Positions 7,436 through 46,310 of a stretch of 64,000 nucleotides of DNA are shown piece by piece. Below the pieces are notes generated by a model that was given only the letters and a program-made list of their open reading frames with translations, searched no databases and was not told where the DNA came from. Every line of letters starts with the position of its first letter. Positions within the stretch are counted from its first letter, which is position 1. Both the position numbers and the translations under genes were made by a program. This DNA comes from a virus. Its lineage: Duplodnaviria; Caudoviricetes. The stretch spans positions 5,362 through 69,361 of IMG/VR virus record IMGVR_UViG_3300037515_000354; one strand, written 5' to 3'.

Positions 7436-7493
7436 GTAAGAGATCCAAAGCTCTGTGCGTCCCGCTGACGAGATCGTTTGTCTCCCGGACCCC
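7436..7493 (-). promoter_or_regulatory. Conserved phage leader/operator element, copy 1
   Basis: 27 nt (7436-7462) identical to 46181-46207; sits just upstream of the RBS of the replication operon. Confidence 0.6.
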
Positions 7494-12967: not shown

Positions 12968-14652
12968 CTGTGTCGATCTTGCCCCTCCGTGACTACCAGC
13001 GCGGTGCAGTGGATGCGGTGCAGGACGCGCATGCCGCCGGGATGAACTTCCCGGCGGTGGTCCTGCCGTGCGGATCCGGGAAGTCGGTCATCCTGGCCCA
13101 TCTGGCCGCCGAGAATCTGGCCGCGCACCGTGGCCGGAACCTCGTGCTCGTCCACCGCGACGAGATCGTTGACCAGTTGATCAGCCAGATCAGGGCGGTC
13201 GCGCCGTGCCTCACGGTGGGCAAGGTGAAGGCCGCAGACGACGAGGTGATGGCGGACGTGGTGGTCGCCAGTGTGCAGACCGTGTCCCGGCCGGAAAGGC
13301 TCCGGCGTCTGGTCGCCTCGCAGTACCAAGTTGCTCCGAGATCCGCACACCCGAAGAACTTCGGGCTGGTGATCACCGATGAGTGCCACCGGTCGGCAGC
13401 TCCTAGCTACCTCAAGATCTACGACGCGTTCCCGGGAGCCAAGAAGGCGGGGTTCACCGCCACGCTGTCACGCGGCGACGGAGTCGGCCTCGGGTCCGTC
13501 ATCGACGATGTGGTGTTCACCCGGTCATGGCTATGGATGATCAAGAACGGGTACCTCGTGGACCCGGTGGGGCAGGTGGCCACCGTGGAAGACCTGGACC
13601 TGTCCGGCGTCCGCCGGAGCGGGGGTGACTACGCGGCTGGTGCCCTGGGTGAGGCACTGCTCGACACCGGGGCGCCCGAGGTCATCGCGGCGGCATACCG
13701 GCGCTACGCGTGGGACCGCTCCGGCGTGGTGTTCACGCCGACCGTGGCCGCCGCCTACGGCGTGCGCGAGGCGCTGGCCACTGCGGGTACCACGGCCGCC
13801 GTGGTGGACGCTGCTACACCCCGTGCGGACCGTCTGCGGATCTACGAAGACTCACGCAGCGGCAGGGTCCAGGTCATCGTCAACTGTGCGGTGCTGGTCG
13901 AGGGAGCTGACTTCCCGTGGGTGTCCGCCGTAGTGCCCCCTATCACCCGGTCTCAGGGCCGGTTCCAGCAGTCGGTGGGCCGGGCCATGCGCACGTTCCC
14001 CGGCAAGCAGGACGCGCTGGTGCTGTCCGTGGGCGGTATGTCCGGGAGGCTCTGCACACTGGTGGACCTTCAGCCCGGGACCGTGCGGGCCGTCAGGCCG
14101 GGGGAATCTCTGGTTGAAGCGGAAGTCCGGGAGAAAGCCGAGGCGGACCGGACCGTACCCGCCAGCACGCGCGGGTTCGATCTGAAGGTCCGGCACGTCG
14201 ACATGTTCGCAGCGAGCCGGAGTGTGTGGCTGCGCACCCACGGAGGGGTGTACTTCGTCCCCGTGGCGGACGGCGAGGTCTTCCTCTGGAAGGGCTCCGA
14301 CGGTATGTGGGAAGTCCGCCACGCACCGCGTGACACGTCCCGTCTCAAGATCGTGTGGCCGGTCCTGTACGAAGGTCTTTCCCTGGAGATGGCCATGGCG
14401 TTCGGCGAGGCTGCTTCCGAGGATCTGGAGACCGGCTCCGCCCGTGTGTCGAGCAAGGCAGCGTCGTGGCGCAAGTCCAAAGCCGGTCCCACCGAGGGCC
14501 AGATGGCCGCCTGCCGCGTCCACGGGGTGGCCGTGCCCGAGGGTGCCACCCGCGCTCAGGTGTCCGATCTGCTGTCCGTACACGTGGCCAGTGCGAAGTT
14601 CGATCCGTTCGCTGTCCGGCTGGCCCGGCAGACCACTGTCAGTGCCCCGTAG
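12964..14652 (+). CDS. Superfamily 2 DExH helicase
   Basis: Walker A LPCGSGKS, DECH, FTAT, VIVNCAVLVEGADFP, QQSVGRAMR. Confidence 0.93.
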   Translation: MTVSILPLRDYQRGAVDAVQDAHAAGMNFPAVVLPCGSGKSVILAHLAAENLAAHRGRNLVLVHRDEIVDQLISQIRAVAPCLTVGKVKAADDEVMADVVVASVQTVSRPERLRRLVASQYQVAPRSAHPKNFGLVITDECHRSAAPSYLKIYDAFPGAKKAGFTATLSRGDGVGLGSVIDDVVFTRSWLWMIKNGYLVDPVGQVATVEDLDLSGVRRSGGDYAAGALGEALLDTGAPEVIAAAYRRYAWDRSGVVFTPTVAAAYGVREALATAGTTAAVVDAATPRADRLRIYEDSRSGRVQVIVNCAVLVEGADFPWVSAVVPPITRSQGRFQQSVGRAMRTFPGKQDALVLSVGGMSGRLCTLVDLQPGTVRAVRPGESLVEAEVREKAEADRTVPASTRGFDLKVRHVDMFAASRSVWLRTHGGVYFVPVADGEVFLWKGSDGMWEVRHAPRDTSRLKIVWPVLYEGLSLEMAMAFGEAASEDLETGSARVSSKAASWRKSKAGPTEGQMAACRVHGVAVPEGATRAQVSDLLSVHVASAKFDPFAVRLARQTTVSAP

Positions 14653-18123: not shown

Positions 18124-18196
18124 TCCTCCGTAGCTCAGTTGGCAGAGCACCGTCCTGTTAAGTCGGTGGCCGCTGGTTCGAGTCCAGCCGGGGGAG
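18124..18196 (+). tRNA. trnN: tRNA-Asn (GTT)
   Basis: Cloverleaf TCCTCCG/CGGGGGA, D arm GCTC/GAGC, loop CTGTTAA, T loop TTCGAGT; one U-U mismatch in the anticodon stem; no encoded CCA. Confidence 0.92.
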
Positions 18197-18252
18197 CGCA
18201 TCACACAACCCAACAAGCCCGCAGCCCGCAGCACACAGCAAAGGATCACAGC

Positions 18253-26773: not shown

Positions 26774-26971
26774 ATGGAGACCAACCAGTACGCGACTGAG
26801 TCCAACACCTCCGTCTGGTACGAGGTGCAGCGCCAGTCCGGCAGCAACTACGGCTGGATCACTCTCTCCGACCACGACACCCGCGAGCAGGCAGAGAGCG
26901 CCATGGATGCCCGGACGGGTTCGGTCGCCGACCCCAGCTACCGGATCCGCCGGGTGCGCGGACAGGCATAA
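26774..26971 (+). CDS. Hypothetical protein
   Basis: Stop TAA abuts hammerhead 1. Confidence 0.7.
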   Translation: METNQYATESNTSVWYEVQRQSGSNYGWITLSDHDTREQAESAMDARTGSVADPSYRIRRVRGQA

Positions 26972-27031
26972 GGCGAAACGCCCCTCGGGGCGTCCGCCGG
27001 GGGTGCCTCCCCGGCGCTGATGAGCCAGGCA
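26972..27031 (+). ncRNA. Type II hammerhead ribozyme 1 (predicted cleavage after C26994)
   Basis: GGC-GAAA-CGCCC/GGGCG-TC-CGCCGGGG/CCCCGGCG-CTGATGA-GCC; loop TGCCT pairs with tail AGGCA. Confidence 0.92.
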
Positions 27032-27051
27032 CACGGACACAGGGAGCGATC

Positions 27052-27246
27052 ATGACCAGCATCAACCAGGGCCCGAACGACGACTACCGCCGCACCGGCC
27101 AACCGGTCACGTACCTCACCGCCGACGGCACCCGGCGGGTGTCCGGCACCGTCCGGTGGGAAGACGCGAACGGCGTCAAGGTGGATGTACCCGGACAGCA
27201 GTTCGGAGCGTACGTGTCCCACGCGTTCGTCACCTTCACACGCTGA
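27052..27246 (+). CDS. Hypothetical protein
   Basis: GGGAG RBS between hammerheads 1 and 2. Confidence 0.75.
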   Translation: MTSINQGPNDDYRRTGQPVTYLTADGTRRVSGTVRWEDANGVKVDVPGQQFGAYVSHAFVTFTR

Positions 27247-27250
27247 TCAA

Positions 27251-27310
27251 GGCGAAACGCCCCTCGGGGCGTCCGCCGGGGGTGCCTCCCCGGCGCTGAT
27301 GAGCCAGGCA
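27251..27310 (+). ncRNA. Type II hammerhead ribozyme 2 (cleavage after C27273)
   Basis: Identical to copy 1. Confidence 0.92.
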
Positions 27311-27330
27311 AACGAACCGAGGAGCCGGTC

Positions 27331-27531
27331 ATGGCACTTACCCCCGGAACACAGATCACCGTCCTGCTGGGGACCGAGCCGGAGCAGTTCACGGTCGAGA
27401 GTGTCGACAAGGACTGCACGGTGCATGTGCGGTCGAACGCTGCGCCGTACAGCCTGGTCATGTGGCCGACTGACTACCGCCTCGGTGCCACGCTGCACAA
27501 GATGGGCCAACCGGGTACCAAGGGTTGGTAA
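27331..27531 (+). CDS. Hypothetical protein
   Basis: GAGGAG RBS. Confidence 0.75.
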   Translation: MALTPGTQITVLLGTEPEQFTVESVDKDCTVHVRSNAAPYSLVMWPTDYRLGATLHKMGQPGTKGW

Positions 27532-27550
27532 CTGATCTCCGTCTGATCAA

Positions 27551-27610
27551 GGCGAAACGCCCCTCGGGGCGTCCGCCGGGGGTGCCTCCCCGGCGCTGAT
27601 GAGCCAGGCA
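27551..27610 (+). ncRNA. Type II hammerhead ribozyme 3 (cleavage after C27573)
   Basis: Identical to copy 1. Confidence 0.92.
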
Positions 27611-27624
27611 CGGAAGGAAAGATC

Positions 27625-27771
27625 ATGGATGCCGCAACCGAAGCGATCAGTTTCGCCGCCGCCGCGTGGTCGCTCGAACTGATCGACCACTACCCCGGCA
27701 CCGACGCCGACCGTGACGACATGATCCGCAATCTGGCCGCGTACGGTCCGGCCATCACCGAGAGGGACTGA
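27625..27771 (+). CDS. 48-aa hypothetical protein (not in ORF track)
   Basis: AAGGAAAG RBS; MDAATEAISF...ITERD. Confidence 0.6.
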   Translation: MDAATEAISFAAAAWSLELIDHYPGTDADRDDMIRNLAAYGPAITERD

Positions 27772-27776
27772 TCCAA

Positions 27777-28007
27777 ATGACCATGGACACCACCATCCGT
27801 ACCGGCGACGTTGTCGTGATCTTCTACGACGCCGACTCGCTGCCCGGAACGGTCTGCAAGATCGTAAAGTCCCGCACCGGCAACGTCCGCCGGGTCGGGA
27901 TCGCTCCCGACGGCGCGGACATCGTGGCCTGGTTCATCCCGGTGCCCGACATGTTCGACGGGGCCTGTCTGGTCTCGGTGGGGGGTTCCACCGTCGCGTA
28001 CTGGTAA
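27777..28007 (+). CDS. Hypothetical protein (SH3-like beta pattern)
   Basis: IRTGDVVVIF...PGTVCKIV. Confidence 0.65.
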   Translation: MTMDTTIRTGDVVVIFYDADSLPGTVCKIVKSRTGNVRRVGIAPDGADIVAWFIPVPDMFDGACLVSVGGSTVAYW

Positions 28008-28009
28008 GA

Positions 28010-28073
28010 GGCGAAACGCTCCCTCCGGGGAGCGTCCATCGGGCATGGTCCCCCGGTGCTGATGAGCCGGACC
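28010..28073 (+). ncRNA. Type II hammerhead ribozyme 4, divergent (cleavage after C28036)
   Basis: Same core; compensatory stems CGCTCCC/GGGAGCG and CATCGGG/CCCGGTG; loop TGGTC pairs with tail GACCA. Confidence 0.92.
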
Positions 28074-28089
28074 ACGAGGAGGAGCGATC

Positions 28090-30146: not shown

Positions 30147-30208
30147 TGATCGGAGGCAGCATGGTGGCCGGTCCCTCCGGGGGCCGGTTGGCCACGGGTT
30201 ACCGATCA
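30147..30208 (+). ncRNA. Unknown 62-nt structured intergenic motif, copy A
   Basis: Terminal stem TGATCGG/CCGATCA and inner stem CCGGTCCC/GGGGCCGG; repeated at 30635. Confidence 0.6.
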
Positions 30209-30446: not shown

Positions 30447-30637
30447 TCATGCGCGTAGGCGACCTGATCCAGATGACGGTTACCCGATGCGATTCGATCA
30501 TTGAAGTCACCGCTCGGTTCGGGGGGCAGGAAGGACGCGGCCAGGCCCCGAACACCGGGACCCTCGCGCAGGACGTGGCCGCACTCCGGGCGGTCCGCAA
30601 TCTGAAGCGCAAGCTGGACGGCCGACCGGCCGAATGA
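30443..30637 (+). CDS. Hypothetical protein
   Basis: GTGA overlap; stop lies in motif copy B. Confidence 0.6.
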   Translation: MIMRVGDLIQMTVTRCDSIIEVTARFGGQEGRGQAPNTGTLAQDVAALRAVRNLKRKLDGRPAE

Positions 30638-30696
30638 TCGGAGGCAGCATGGTGGCCGGTCCCCTGGGGGGCCGGTCGGCCATGGGTTACCGATCA
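30635..30696 (+). ncRNA. Unknown 62-nt structured intergenic motif, copy B
   Basis: Differs from copy A in the apical loop and two stem-compatible positions. Confidence 0.6.
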
Positions 30697-31732: not shown

Positions 31733-32019
31733 CTCAGGTGCGCACCCTCGCTCAGGCCGAGGAAGCGATCAGGGAGCTGCGCCCGTTCCGGCTGCGCGAC
31801 ACCCTGCGGGCACTGCCCGTTTGGAACGGAACGACCGGATCCCTGCCGTGGCCCGACTACCACGAGTCCATCAAGGACGCGGTGTACGTGGTGATCAGCT
31901 ACGGCACGCCGATCGCCTGGGTCCGGCCGGACGGCACGAAGGTGCTGCCGGACATCGGGTACAGCGCCACGACCGGGCAGCACCAGTACATCGTCAAGGA
32001 CGCGGGGATCGACTCATGA
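31729..32019 (+). CDS. Hypothetical protein
   Basis: YVVISYGTPIAW...YSATTGQHQ, a common small phage family pattern. Confidence 0.7.
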   Translation: MTQVRTLAQAEEAIRELRPFRLRDTLRALPVWNGTTGSLPWPDYHESIKDAVYVVISYGTPIAWVRPDGTKVLPDIGYSATTGQHQYIVKDAGIDS

Positions 32020-32321
32020 CCTGCATCCTGCGACTGTGCGGCGGCTGCAACGGATCGTTCTGCGGGGACAACCGCAACGAAACGTATTTCTGCCCGAAGT
32101 GCACGGCTGCACTGCCGGAGTTCGATCCCCAGCCGTACGCGAAGTGCGAGGGACGGCCGGACCGGCAGCAAGTCAAGTACGGCCCGTACCTGCGTGACCA
32201 TGTCGTCCTCGCCCGTGAGGGCGACATGGTGACGATCAGGCTCCTGGGCAGCCCGGACGCACCGTCGTTCGAGGTGCACGTCAACAACCTGCGACCGCCG
32301 TGGGTTTCCTACGGCCGGTAG
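32016..32321 (+). CDS. Hypothetical zinc-ribbon protein
   Basis: CGGC..C, CPKC. Confidence 0.65.
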   Translation: MTCILRLCGGCNGSFCGDNRNETYFCPKCTAALPEFDPQPYAKCEGRPDRQQVKYGPYLRDHVVLAREGDMVTIRLLGSPDAPSFEVHVNNLRPPWVSYGR

Positions 32322-32459
32322 CACATACGGGGAGGTACGCGACTCCCATGTCATATCCGCCGAGGGGCCTGAGCGTCGCTGTGACGTCCGGGCCCCGATA
32401 CCTGGGGAGGTTGCACCACCCCGGCTCTGTGCGCCCCGCTGTGGGGCGCACAGAGCTTT

Positions 32460-32508
32460 GCCCCCGTGGAGTAACGGGATCTCGCCGGTTCGAATCCGGT
32501 CGGGGGCA
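32460..32508 (+). ncRNA. 49-nt tRNA-like element lacking the anticodon arm
   Basis: Acceptor GCCCCCG/CGGGGGC plus A; D-like arm GAG/CTC; T arm GCCGG-TTCGAAT-CCGGT. Confidence 0.8.
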
Positions 32509-32552
32509 CGCACGAGAGACACGATTCTGTCCGGCCACCAAAGGAACCGATC

Positions 32553-32684
32553 ATGACAGACAGGCATGACCAGAACACCGAGGACGAGTATCCGCGCACG
32601 GTCGACTTCGAGCCCGAGCCGGAGCTGTTCGACGTGAACGAGGTGGCCGCTGAGATATGGGCCGCCACCCACCCGAAGGCGTGA
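32553..32684 (+). CDS. 43-aa acidic protein
   Basis: AAAGGAA RBS. Confidence 0.55.
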   Translation: MTDRHDQNTEDEYPRTVDFEPEPELFDVNEVAAEIWAATHPKA

Positions 32685-32689
32685 TCAGA

Positions 32690-32833
32690 ATGCTGATTGC
32701 GCTCATCTCCGATCACCGGGCCCGCACGGTCCTCATGATCCTCGCTCTGATGGGTGCCGTCCTCCTCGCCTCGTGCGGGAGCGAAGGCGGCATGTACCAG
32801 GGCGGGAACGACGACTCACCGCACTGGCGGTGA
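32690..32833 (+). CDS. 47-aa putative lipoprotein
   Basis: Hydrophobic stretch ending in lipobox LASC. Confidence 0.55.
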   Translation: MLIALISDHRARTVLMILALMGAVLLASCGSEGGMYQGGNDDSPHWR

Positions 32834-37295: not shown

Positions 37296-37367
37296 ACACC
37301 TGTAGCTCAGGGGACAGAGCACCGCGCTACGGACGCGGAGGACGGGGGTTCGAATCCCCCCGGGTGT
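37296..37367 (+). tRNA. trnR: tRNA-Arg (ACG), one nucleotide short at the T-stem/acceptor junction
   Basis: D arm GCTC/GAGC, anticodon stem CCGCG/CGCGG, loop CTACGGA, T loop TTCGAAT. Confidence 0.85.
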
Positions 37368-37400
37368 ACGCAGACCACCACCACTACGTAAGGATCACCC

Positions 37401-37748
37401 ATGCTCACACTCGACAGCTACATCGGCTCCAGGACGGTCCTGCCGAGCAGGCTCGGACCGGGCGACGTCGTCGCTGACCTTCAGGGCGAGTTTGCCCTGA
37501 TGGTCGACGAGATCGAGCCCATCATGATCAGCTACAAGTCCGGTCCCGTGCCGGTGTGGTGGGTCAGGGGACACAAGGTCAACCCGGCCGGTCACTACGC
37601 CACCGTGATCACGGTGTGCATTCCGCGTCAGCACTGGTACCTGCTCAAGCAGTCACAGCCGGTGGCCGCCGCGCCCCTTGAAGAGAGGAGCGAGCCTCGT
37701 GGAGAAGCTGTCTCAGCGGCAGGCGCAAGCAGTCCGTCTCGCCGCTGA
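37401..37748 (+). CDS. Hypothetical protein
   Basis: AAGGA RBS. Confidence 0.6.
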   Translation: MLTLDSYIGSRTVLPSRLGPGDVVADLQGEFALMVDEIEPIMISYKSGPVPVWWVRGHKVNPAGHYATVITVCIPRQHWYLLKQSQPVAAAPLEERSEPRGEAVSAAGASSPSRR

Positions 37749-46180: not shown

Positions 46181-46310
46181 GTAAGAGATCCAAAGCTCTG
46201 TGCGTCCGCCTAACGAGATCCTTTGCCGCCCGGACCCCCGTGGTACCCCGGACTTGGGTTAGGGATTTGTGCAGGCGGGGGACGTGATCACGAACATTGG
46301 TCGGAGCGAA
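46181..46310 (-). promoter_or_regulatory. Composite conserved element sharing one half with 7436-7493 and the other with 25562-25618
   Basis: Manual alignment. Confidence 0.65.

Follow-up and report, generated by a model that had tools for sequence, protein, structure and literature searches.

What can a tRNA-like element that lacks an anticodon arm be doing between two small genes of a phage? The question arises from 49 nt in the window, by which we mean the whole 64,000-nt stretch of virus DNA analysed here, comprising the greater part of G000, an IMG/VR virus record of 69 kb (about 65% GC, about 65% complete). The element, hereafter the mini-tRNA, lies in a 231-nt gap between the orphan genes A and B and on the same strand as both. 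The features of this locus are as follows.

32016-32321, + strand: gene A, taken from the ORF list, a 101-aa orphan with CxxC pairs upstream of the mini-tRNA; stop codon TAG at 32319-32321
32322-32459, + strand: structured leader with hairpins at 32330-32347, 32364-32396, 32404-32422 and 32423-32457
32460-32508, + strand: mini-tRNA, with acceptor stem 32460-66/32501-07, D arm 32469-83, T arm 32484-500 and discriminator A 32508
32509-32512, + strand: trailer CGCA, with no CCA encoded; common to most tRNAs and mini-tRNAs of G000 and of four further contigs (G001-G004)
32540-32546, + strand: ribosome-binding site of gene B, AAAGGAA, 31 nt past the mini-tRNA
32553-32684, + strand: gene B, a 43-aa orphan with ATG at 32553
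32690-32833, + strand: gene C, a small membrane protein, with no tRNA after it in the window

Read directly from the sequence, the mini-tRNA corresponds to a tRNA minus exactly positions 26-48. Its acceptor stem (32460-32466 with 32501-32507) consists of seven Watson-Crick pairs, G-C or C-G throughout, beginning with G1-C72, C2-G71 and C3-G70 and followed by A73. U8 and G9 at 32467-32468 lead into a D stem (32469-32472 with 32480-32483) of three Watson-Crick pairs plus a U.U at 13-22, closing a D loop of AACGGGA (A14, G18, G19, A21). The D stem adjoins the T stem directly, with neither anticodon arm nor variable loop between them. The T stem (32484-32488 with 32496-32500) has four Watson-Crick pairs and G49.U65 and carries the loop TTCGAAT, so that the T-arm motif GGTTCGAATCC occurs here together with a 7-bp acceptor and a canonical D arm. 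The canonical tertiary-contact bases are all kept, leaving the upper half intact, and a U stands at position -1. An earlier sequence-only reading had described this anatomy (7-bp acceptor, discriminator, T arm, and a D arm joined to the T arm without an anticodon arm), and the direct reading bears it out; its span of 32460-32512 begins correctly but takes in the 4-nt trailer at the end, the element itself stopping at 32508. The mini-tRNA is incapable of decoding.

Standard tRNA detection passes over the element. ARAGORN called two tRNAs in the window, both also found by Rfam, and did not call the mini-tRNA.

18124-18196, + strand: tRNA-Asn(GTT), located in a gap between genes and trailed by CGCA; the gene after it begins at about 18253
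37296-37368, + strand: tRNA-Arg(ACG), in an intergenic gap, with a hairpin before it and trailer CGCA; the next gene starts at 37401

The Rfam tRNA model (RF00005, family threshold 29 bits) gave no match to the mini-tRNA even at E<=10. With positions 26-48 absent, there is no four-arm cloverleaf, 5-bp anticodon stem or 7-nt anticodon loop. Nor does the element resemble the tRNA-like domain of tmRNA in its diagnostic pair, position 3-70 being C-G and not G3.U70, and ARAGORN made no tmRNA call. The trailer CGCA follows the discriminator at three places in the window (18197-18200, 32509-32512 and 37369-37372) and also in many Streptomyces phage tRNAs. Among distinct T-arm-plus-ACGCA sites sampled from IMG/VR, 37 of 115 had no ARAGORN call.

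An element of this size could in principle be a coincidence of short motifs. The T-arm consensus GGTTCRANYCC is expected 0.72 times per window, and two other T-arm motifs in the window (26409 and 45712) lie in coding frames, have no acceptor stem and were dismissed as chance matches. We examined 159 T arms lying beyond any called tRNA in phage DNA totalling 1.33 Mb, with a composition-matched decoy control. A 7-bp acceptor stood 13-20 nt from the T arm in three cases against 0.33 expected, and 21-35 nt away in six cases against 0.5 expected. One further match (L072) sits within a real tRNA-Arg and was set aside. Because of this enrichment of T-arm and acceptor pairings over expectation, and because the same slot holds a true tRNA in a related genome (G001, below), the mini-tRNA is more than a chance assembly. 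On these grounds it is tRNA-derived, and a chance match is most improbable.

Genes A and B led to three related IMG/VR contigs (G001, G002 and G003). Gene B is conserved at 63-66% identity in all three and in two further metagenome proteins, and its relatives P0002 and P0003 are 65% identical. An identical gene B is encoded by 10 contigs in all, nine of them other than G000 and the longest measuring 81 kb, and a scan of genome contigs with gene B returned a chance match only. A gene A homologue occurs in G001 at 68% identity but at another position. Over 110 nt, the G001 leader is 74% identical to that of the window, and double changes preserve the pairing of its hairpins; a search of IMG/VR with a conserved leader word returned G001 as the only relative.

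The contents of the slot before gene B differ among these genomes. In G001, a full tRNA-Ala(AGC) bearing G3.U70 comes after the leader, and next come homologues of genes B and C and then a tRNA-Glu(CTC). In G002, gene B comes directly after another gene with nothing between. In G003, gene B is preceded by nothing more than a short hairpin and followed by a tRNA-Arg(TCT). A mini-tRNA at this place is absent from all three relatives. Judged by sequence comparison, the slot is orthologous and can hold a working tRNA, a mini-tRNA, or nothing, and any cut made at it must be dispensable, since no relative has the mini-tRNA (one tRNA-Ala, two empty). We rejected the idea that the mini-tRNA is a truncated copy of the G001 tRNA-Ala, because five stem pairs differ on both sides with pairing kept and G3.U70 is missing. 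The sequence-only reading had held that a full tRNA at this place in relatives would mark the element as a recent deletion pseudogene. To the letter, G001 provides such a tRNA in the same slot, but its type differs from the glutamate-like parent described below; the comparison thus establishes sharing of the slot and not simple decay of the same gene.

Broader searches returned no counterpart of the element itself. No exact or near-exact copy of the mini-tRNA was found in IMG/VR, no orthologue of it came to light, and a BLAST search of the region found no relative among cultured phages. When the mini-tRNA alone was used as the BLAST query, matches were confined to the T arm and belonged to ordinary tRNAs, attP cores and some aberrant tRNA-like sequences. 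The junction pattern GTAACGG..GC.GGTTCG was searched in IMG/VR; beyond G004 (below), most of the inspected matches were either chance or canonical tRNAs that have GTAACGG within or close to the variable region. A match in Streptomyces phage TomSawyer that seemed to run across the D/T junction was rejected for lack of a 5' acceptor strand and its position adjoining an HNH gene. At this site (L188, about 700-750) a tRNA D loop, T arm and 3' acceptor adjoin the stop codon of the HNH endonuclease with no 5' acceptor strand nearby, which may represent a tRNA gene split by a homing element.

Where, then, did the mini-tRNA come from? Among 783 distinct tRNAs from phage loci, its best full-length match is a tRNA-Glu(TTC) (L136), identical at 42 of 49 positions (86%), and eight of the 14 best matches to its 5' part are likewise tRNA-Glu. 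The mini-tRNA and the L136 tRNA share the 10-nt stretch ATCTCGCCGG, which in tRNA-Glu extends from the D stem across G26 to the anticodon stem and in the mini-tRNA leads from the D stem into the T stem. The mini-tRNA thus appears to be the upper half of a glutamate-type phage tRNA gene. Its most probable origin would be slippage between GCCGG repeats at 26-30 and 49-53, the first formed by G26 and the 5' strand of the anticodon stem and the second by the 5' strand of the T stem, with loss of positions 26-48. From a parent with GCCGG at both places, slippage would give exactly this product, and its clean borders would follow without invoking selection. We consider an origin by deletion likely.

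This origin raises the prospect that the mini-tRNA is simply inert, a phage tRNA-Glu that recently lost its anticodon arm through GCCGG slippage, has not yet decayed, plays no selected role and is perhaps cut incidentally. The closeness to tRNA-Glu fits such an account, as do the shared ATCTCGCCGG, which gives the junction the look of a repeat-mediated deletion, the single copy in this genome, and a slot that is empty in G002 and G003 and held by a working tRNA in G001. The upstream hairpin might in addition terminate transcription. Against this, all 15 of the standard stem pairs and the conserved loop bases are intact, and phage genomes tend to shed useless DNA quickly. Weighing these points together with the elements from other phages described below, we regard an inert pseudogene as possible but somewhat doubtful.

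The hairpin in question belongs to the leader, whose 138 nt fold into a chain of hairpins with a z-score of -3.7. The last of them (32423-32457) is a perfect 15-bp hairpin, followed by UU and then the mini-tRNA, and its stem is repeated at 7450-7467 and 46191-46204. The leader hairpins (32330-32457) may be an operator or an RNA-stability element. The 15-bp hairpin with UUU just upstream of the mini-tRNA could end transcription before it; the terminator scan made no call there, and simple promoter and terminator scans called neither signal around the mini-tRNA.

The sequence-only reading had also proposed an att-site remnant; recombination by an integrase would then have left part of a tRNA copy behind. 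There is indeed a resemblance between the attP cores of Streptomyces phages RP3 and VWB and the T arm and 3' acceptor of the element. However, an att core contains no more of a tRNA than its 3' part, whereas the mini-tRNA has both acceptor strands and a whole D arm, and the orthologous slot of G001 is occupied by an ordinary internal tRNA gene between the same flanking genes. Pfam detected no family in any of ten proteins neighbouring the mini-tRNA, gene A included, and hence no recognisable integrase among them. We reject this proposal as extremely improbable.

Elements of similar build exist in other phages. G003 encodes a 47-nt anticodon-less element with a 7-bp acceptor including one G.U, a 15-nt linker, a T arm and discriminator A, scoring 18.8 bits with the Rfam tRNA model, below threshold. 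Set against the tRNA-Arg(TCT) of the same contig, it has one changed base in the T loop and no other difference in the T arm, and the two agree fully in the 3' acceptor strand. A covariance model first built from the two minis of the window and G003, then refined (model R2), picked out a series of 48-50-nt elements in a further IMG/VR contig (G004; 62% GC), which is not a close relative and by BLAST has no cultured relative. With the refined model, G004 has eight copies of 48-50 nt on one strand, one of them absent from the seed. In the six copies whose flanks were read, each begins 7-9 nt past a stop codon and is separated by some 10 to 60 nt from the ribosome-binding site that follows; the trailer is CGCA in five and CGTA in one. 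Two G004 copies carry in the linker the motif GTAACGG, as in the D loop of the window element. When nine distinct elements are compared, pairing is kept in 97% of stem cells and double-sided changes are seen at six of 12 pairs, a result reached by 0-1 of 500 shuffles, in a family-wide test on an alignment that was fitted to the model and so favours structure. Rfam contains no family covering mini-tRNAs of this build. Its Plastid-ycf2 matches, on the opposite strand of every mini, merely reflect the reverse complement of the acceptor/T-arm shape and were discarded.

The window mini-tRNA shares the build of this family (7-bp acceptor, 15-18-nt linker, 5-bp T stem, 7-nt T loop, 47-50 nt overall) and scores 59.6 bits with model R2, though it was part of the model seed. 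Like the G004 elements, it lies on the gene strand before a ribosome-binding site, with GG in the linker, discriminator A and trailer CGCA. Unlike them, it is the only mini-tRNA in G000, where G004 has eight, and it begins 138 nt past the stop codon of gene A instead of 7-9 nt past one. It also keeps a complete D arm and is closer to the full tRNA-Glu (86%) than to those copies (about 65%). We conclude that the window mini-tRNA and the G004 elements probably arose independently. The many covarying copies of the same build in G004 argue against inertness, as does the G003 element, in which the D stem is gone and the linker changed, yet the acceptor and T stems are kept.

Several other unusual tRNA-like sequences came to light in the contigs and loci compared. 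On the - strand of G002 (L176), an 89-nt sequence at 13427-13515 has an alanine-type acceptor (G3.U70) and a long irregular hairpin replacing the anticodon arm, and a 69-nt Arg(ACG)-like sequence at 14521-14589 has positions 32 and 38 that can pair, giving a 5-nt loop. Both have sound upper halves with unusable or doubtful anticodon arms, and both precede a ribosome-binding site and start codon. In Streptomyces phage RemusLoopin (L004, 551-636), an 86-nt tRNA-like sequence with a 32-nt 'anticodon region' and no ARAGORN call sits where phiBT1 has a tRNA-Thr(CGT), and the same type occurs in two IMG/VR contigs (L099 and L168). In the tRNA array of Streptomyces phage Satis (L006, about 395-628), unannotated 5' and 3' parts of a tRNA lie about 170 nt apart and may be an intron-bearing tRNA. 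Three IMG/VR loci (L065, L085 and L098) have, in about 80 nt ending at the T-arm match, a G3.U70 acceptor and a motif like the 5' end of tmRNA about 47 nt before the T arm; they resemble the tmRNA tRNA-like domain without its message part, and their Rfam tmRNA matches are weak. G003 (L178, 14685-14756) also has a tRNA-Glu(TTC) with the non-canonical T loop ATCATGA, which keeps its ARAGORN call and scores 44.8 bits with Rfam. A 62-nt tRNA-like sequence in L113 (4828-4889) has a normal anticodon arm (CAA) and only 8 nt for the D arm, with no ARAGORN call.

The surroundings of the mini-tRNA suggest what such an element might do. Its layout is that of the two real tRNAs of the window in strand, intergenic gap, CGCA trailer, ribosome-binding site and start codon, and the same operon contains ribozymes.

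26971-28075, + strand: four type II hammerhead ribozymes, scoring 54.6-57.8 bits with Rfam against a gathering score of 37

The fourth hammerhead begins 2 nt past the stop codon of an ORF that ends at 28007. Because four hammerheads lie there, cutting between cistrons appears to be used in this operon. A 62-nt motif with a 7-bp closing stem is present in two copies (30147-30208 and 30635-30696), each between a stop codon and a ribosome-binding site, the type of slot in which hammerheads and tRNAs are found; a whole-window Rfam scan at gathering thresholds placed no family there.

RNase P, RNase Z and the CCA-adding enzyme recognise their substrates by the acceptor/T-arm stack and the elbow. 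We therefore turn to the reading in which the mini-tRNA is an RNase P/RNase Z processing signal, akin to the t-elements of plant mitochondria, within a small-gene operon. The element would be transcribed as part of the + strand operon and fold so as to form the D/T elbow and the acceptor/T-arm stack. Cleavage by host RNase P would follow at 32459/32460 and, as no CCA is encoded, RNase Z would cleave after A32508. The cuts would free a short RNA and leave the gene A message ending in the hairpin-rich leader, and the gene B message would start about 44 nt before its start codon. This would be the same job as that done by full tRNAs in neighbouring slots and by plant mitochondrial t-elements. In sequence the mini-tRNA has the tRNA homology, T-arm motif and acceptor stem of a t-element. 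In position it separates genes A and B, shares their strand and is presumably co-transcribed with them, and in its slot it is interchangeable with the tRNA-Ala of G001. We favour this reading because the stems and loops are intact, the layout is that of a covarying multi-copy family, and the slot is shared with a tRNA; selection would then be keeping the element.

Other observations weigh against it. There is a single copy in G000, the slot is empty in two relatives, and the 86% identity to tRNA-Glu together with the 5-nt repeat fits a recent neutral accident. The distance of 138 nt from the stop codon departs from the 7-9 nt seen in G004. The three-arm fold is not the minimum free-energy fold, at -23.3 kcal/mol against -24.6 kcal/mol for a different fold (a gap of 1.3), and folds with both the acceptor and T stems make up about 5% of the computed ensemble. 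On balance we give a t-element-like processing signal, as read from the sequence, an even chance of being correct. Of the three hypotheses offered by the sequence-only reading, this one fits best in terms of position, tRNA-sharing slot, hammerheads and the G004 minis, the cutting itself being deduced from these.

The remaining hypothesis is that the mini-tRNA is a mimic directed at proteins, serving to soak up tRNA-targeting defences or tRNA-binding enzymes as a decoy or sponge, itself immune to anticodon nucleases, or as a chargeable acceptor outside translation. The element keeps the elbow and acceptor end that many tRNA-binding proteins read, and other phage contigs hold non-decoding tRNA-like sequences with intact upper halves, one of them with the alanine G3.U70 mark. 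Yet in the ten neighbouring proteins Pfam recognises neither a defence or counter-defence function nor a synthetase or transferase, the acceptor (G1-C72, C2-G71, C3-G70, A73) has no nameable identity set for anticodon-independent charging, and plant t-elements are not aminoacylated (bioRxiv 10.1101/2024.09.09.612099). We consider such a mimic distinctly unlikely.

Processing signals of tRNA-like form are already known from organelles and eukaryotic nuclei. The mascRNA is the tRNA-like 3'-end signal of MALAT1 and keeps a small anticodon-like stem-loop. In mitochondrial tRNA punctuation, as with mascRNA, a tRNA or tRNA-like fold in a long transcript brings in RNase P and RNase Z and sets the ends of the neighbouring RNAs, and the 3' end that the cut creates is protected by a stable upstream structure; at our locus the 15-bp hairpin at 32423-32457 could take that part. 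Both of these systems are eukaryotic, unlike ours, and the comparison draws in part on the summary in bioRxiv 10.1101/2024.09.09.612099.

The closest parallel is with plant mitochondrial t-elements, which are cut by RNase P and RNase Z and CCA-tailed and are not aminoacylated (PMC1920247, Forner et al. 2007; bioRxiv 10.1101/2024.09.09.612099). Like the mini-tRNA, they are tRNA-derived and non-decoding, carry the GGTTCRANYCC T-arm motif, lie at the ends of coding regions in polycistronic transcripts and share slots with true tRNAs. They differ in being organellar and mostly a degenerate cloverleaf, whereas the phage mini-tRNA cleanly lacks the anticodon arm and variable loop; and cleavage, demonstrated for the plant elements, is deduced for the phage one. 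In bacteria, the tRNA-like module of the Mycobacterium smegmatis YrlA RNA is cut by RNase P and CCA-tailed (PMC4201824). This module and the tRNA-like domain of tmRNA share with the mini-tRNA an acceptor stem, a T arm, a D-like loop and the absence of anticodon function. The mini-tRNA, in contrast, has no G3.U70, mRNA-like part or Ro60-binding part and is far smaller, with both ends within 49 nt. A literature search of partial coverage found no description of such elements in phages.

If the mini-tRNA is merely a dead gene, the finding is ordinary. More broadly, we hypothesize that high-GC phages use stripped upper halves of tRNAs as dedicated cut marks for host RNase P and RNase Z, a phage version of tRNA punctuation, although for this general proposition our confidence stops a little short of even. 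On this hypothesis, tRNA genes of the phages themselves would repeatedly give rise to such marks on losing the anticodon arm, and the window element would be a young member that still has its D arm, in a slot held by a working tRNA in a relative. The operon would also use hammerheads and a further repeated motif for the same purpose. As a transitional form, the window mini-tRNA illustrates how a tRNA gene could plausibly become a top-half element in one step, and with the G001 tRNA it places a mini and a tRNA in the same slot of related genomes. Were the element cut in the proposed way, host tRNA-maturation enzymes would shape phage messages through tRNA-derived signals that go unreported by tRNA finders and RNA databases alike. 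This would bear on phage annotation, a third of the sampled T-arm-plus-trailer sites having no tRNA call, and on the design of multi-gene expression cassettes in actinobacteria. Part of the value of tRNA genes to the phages that carry them may then lie in processing and not in decoding.
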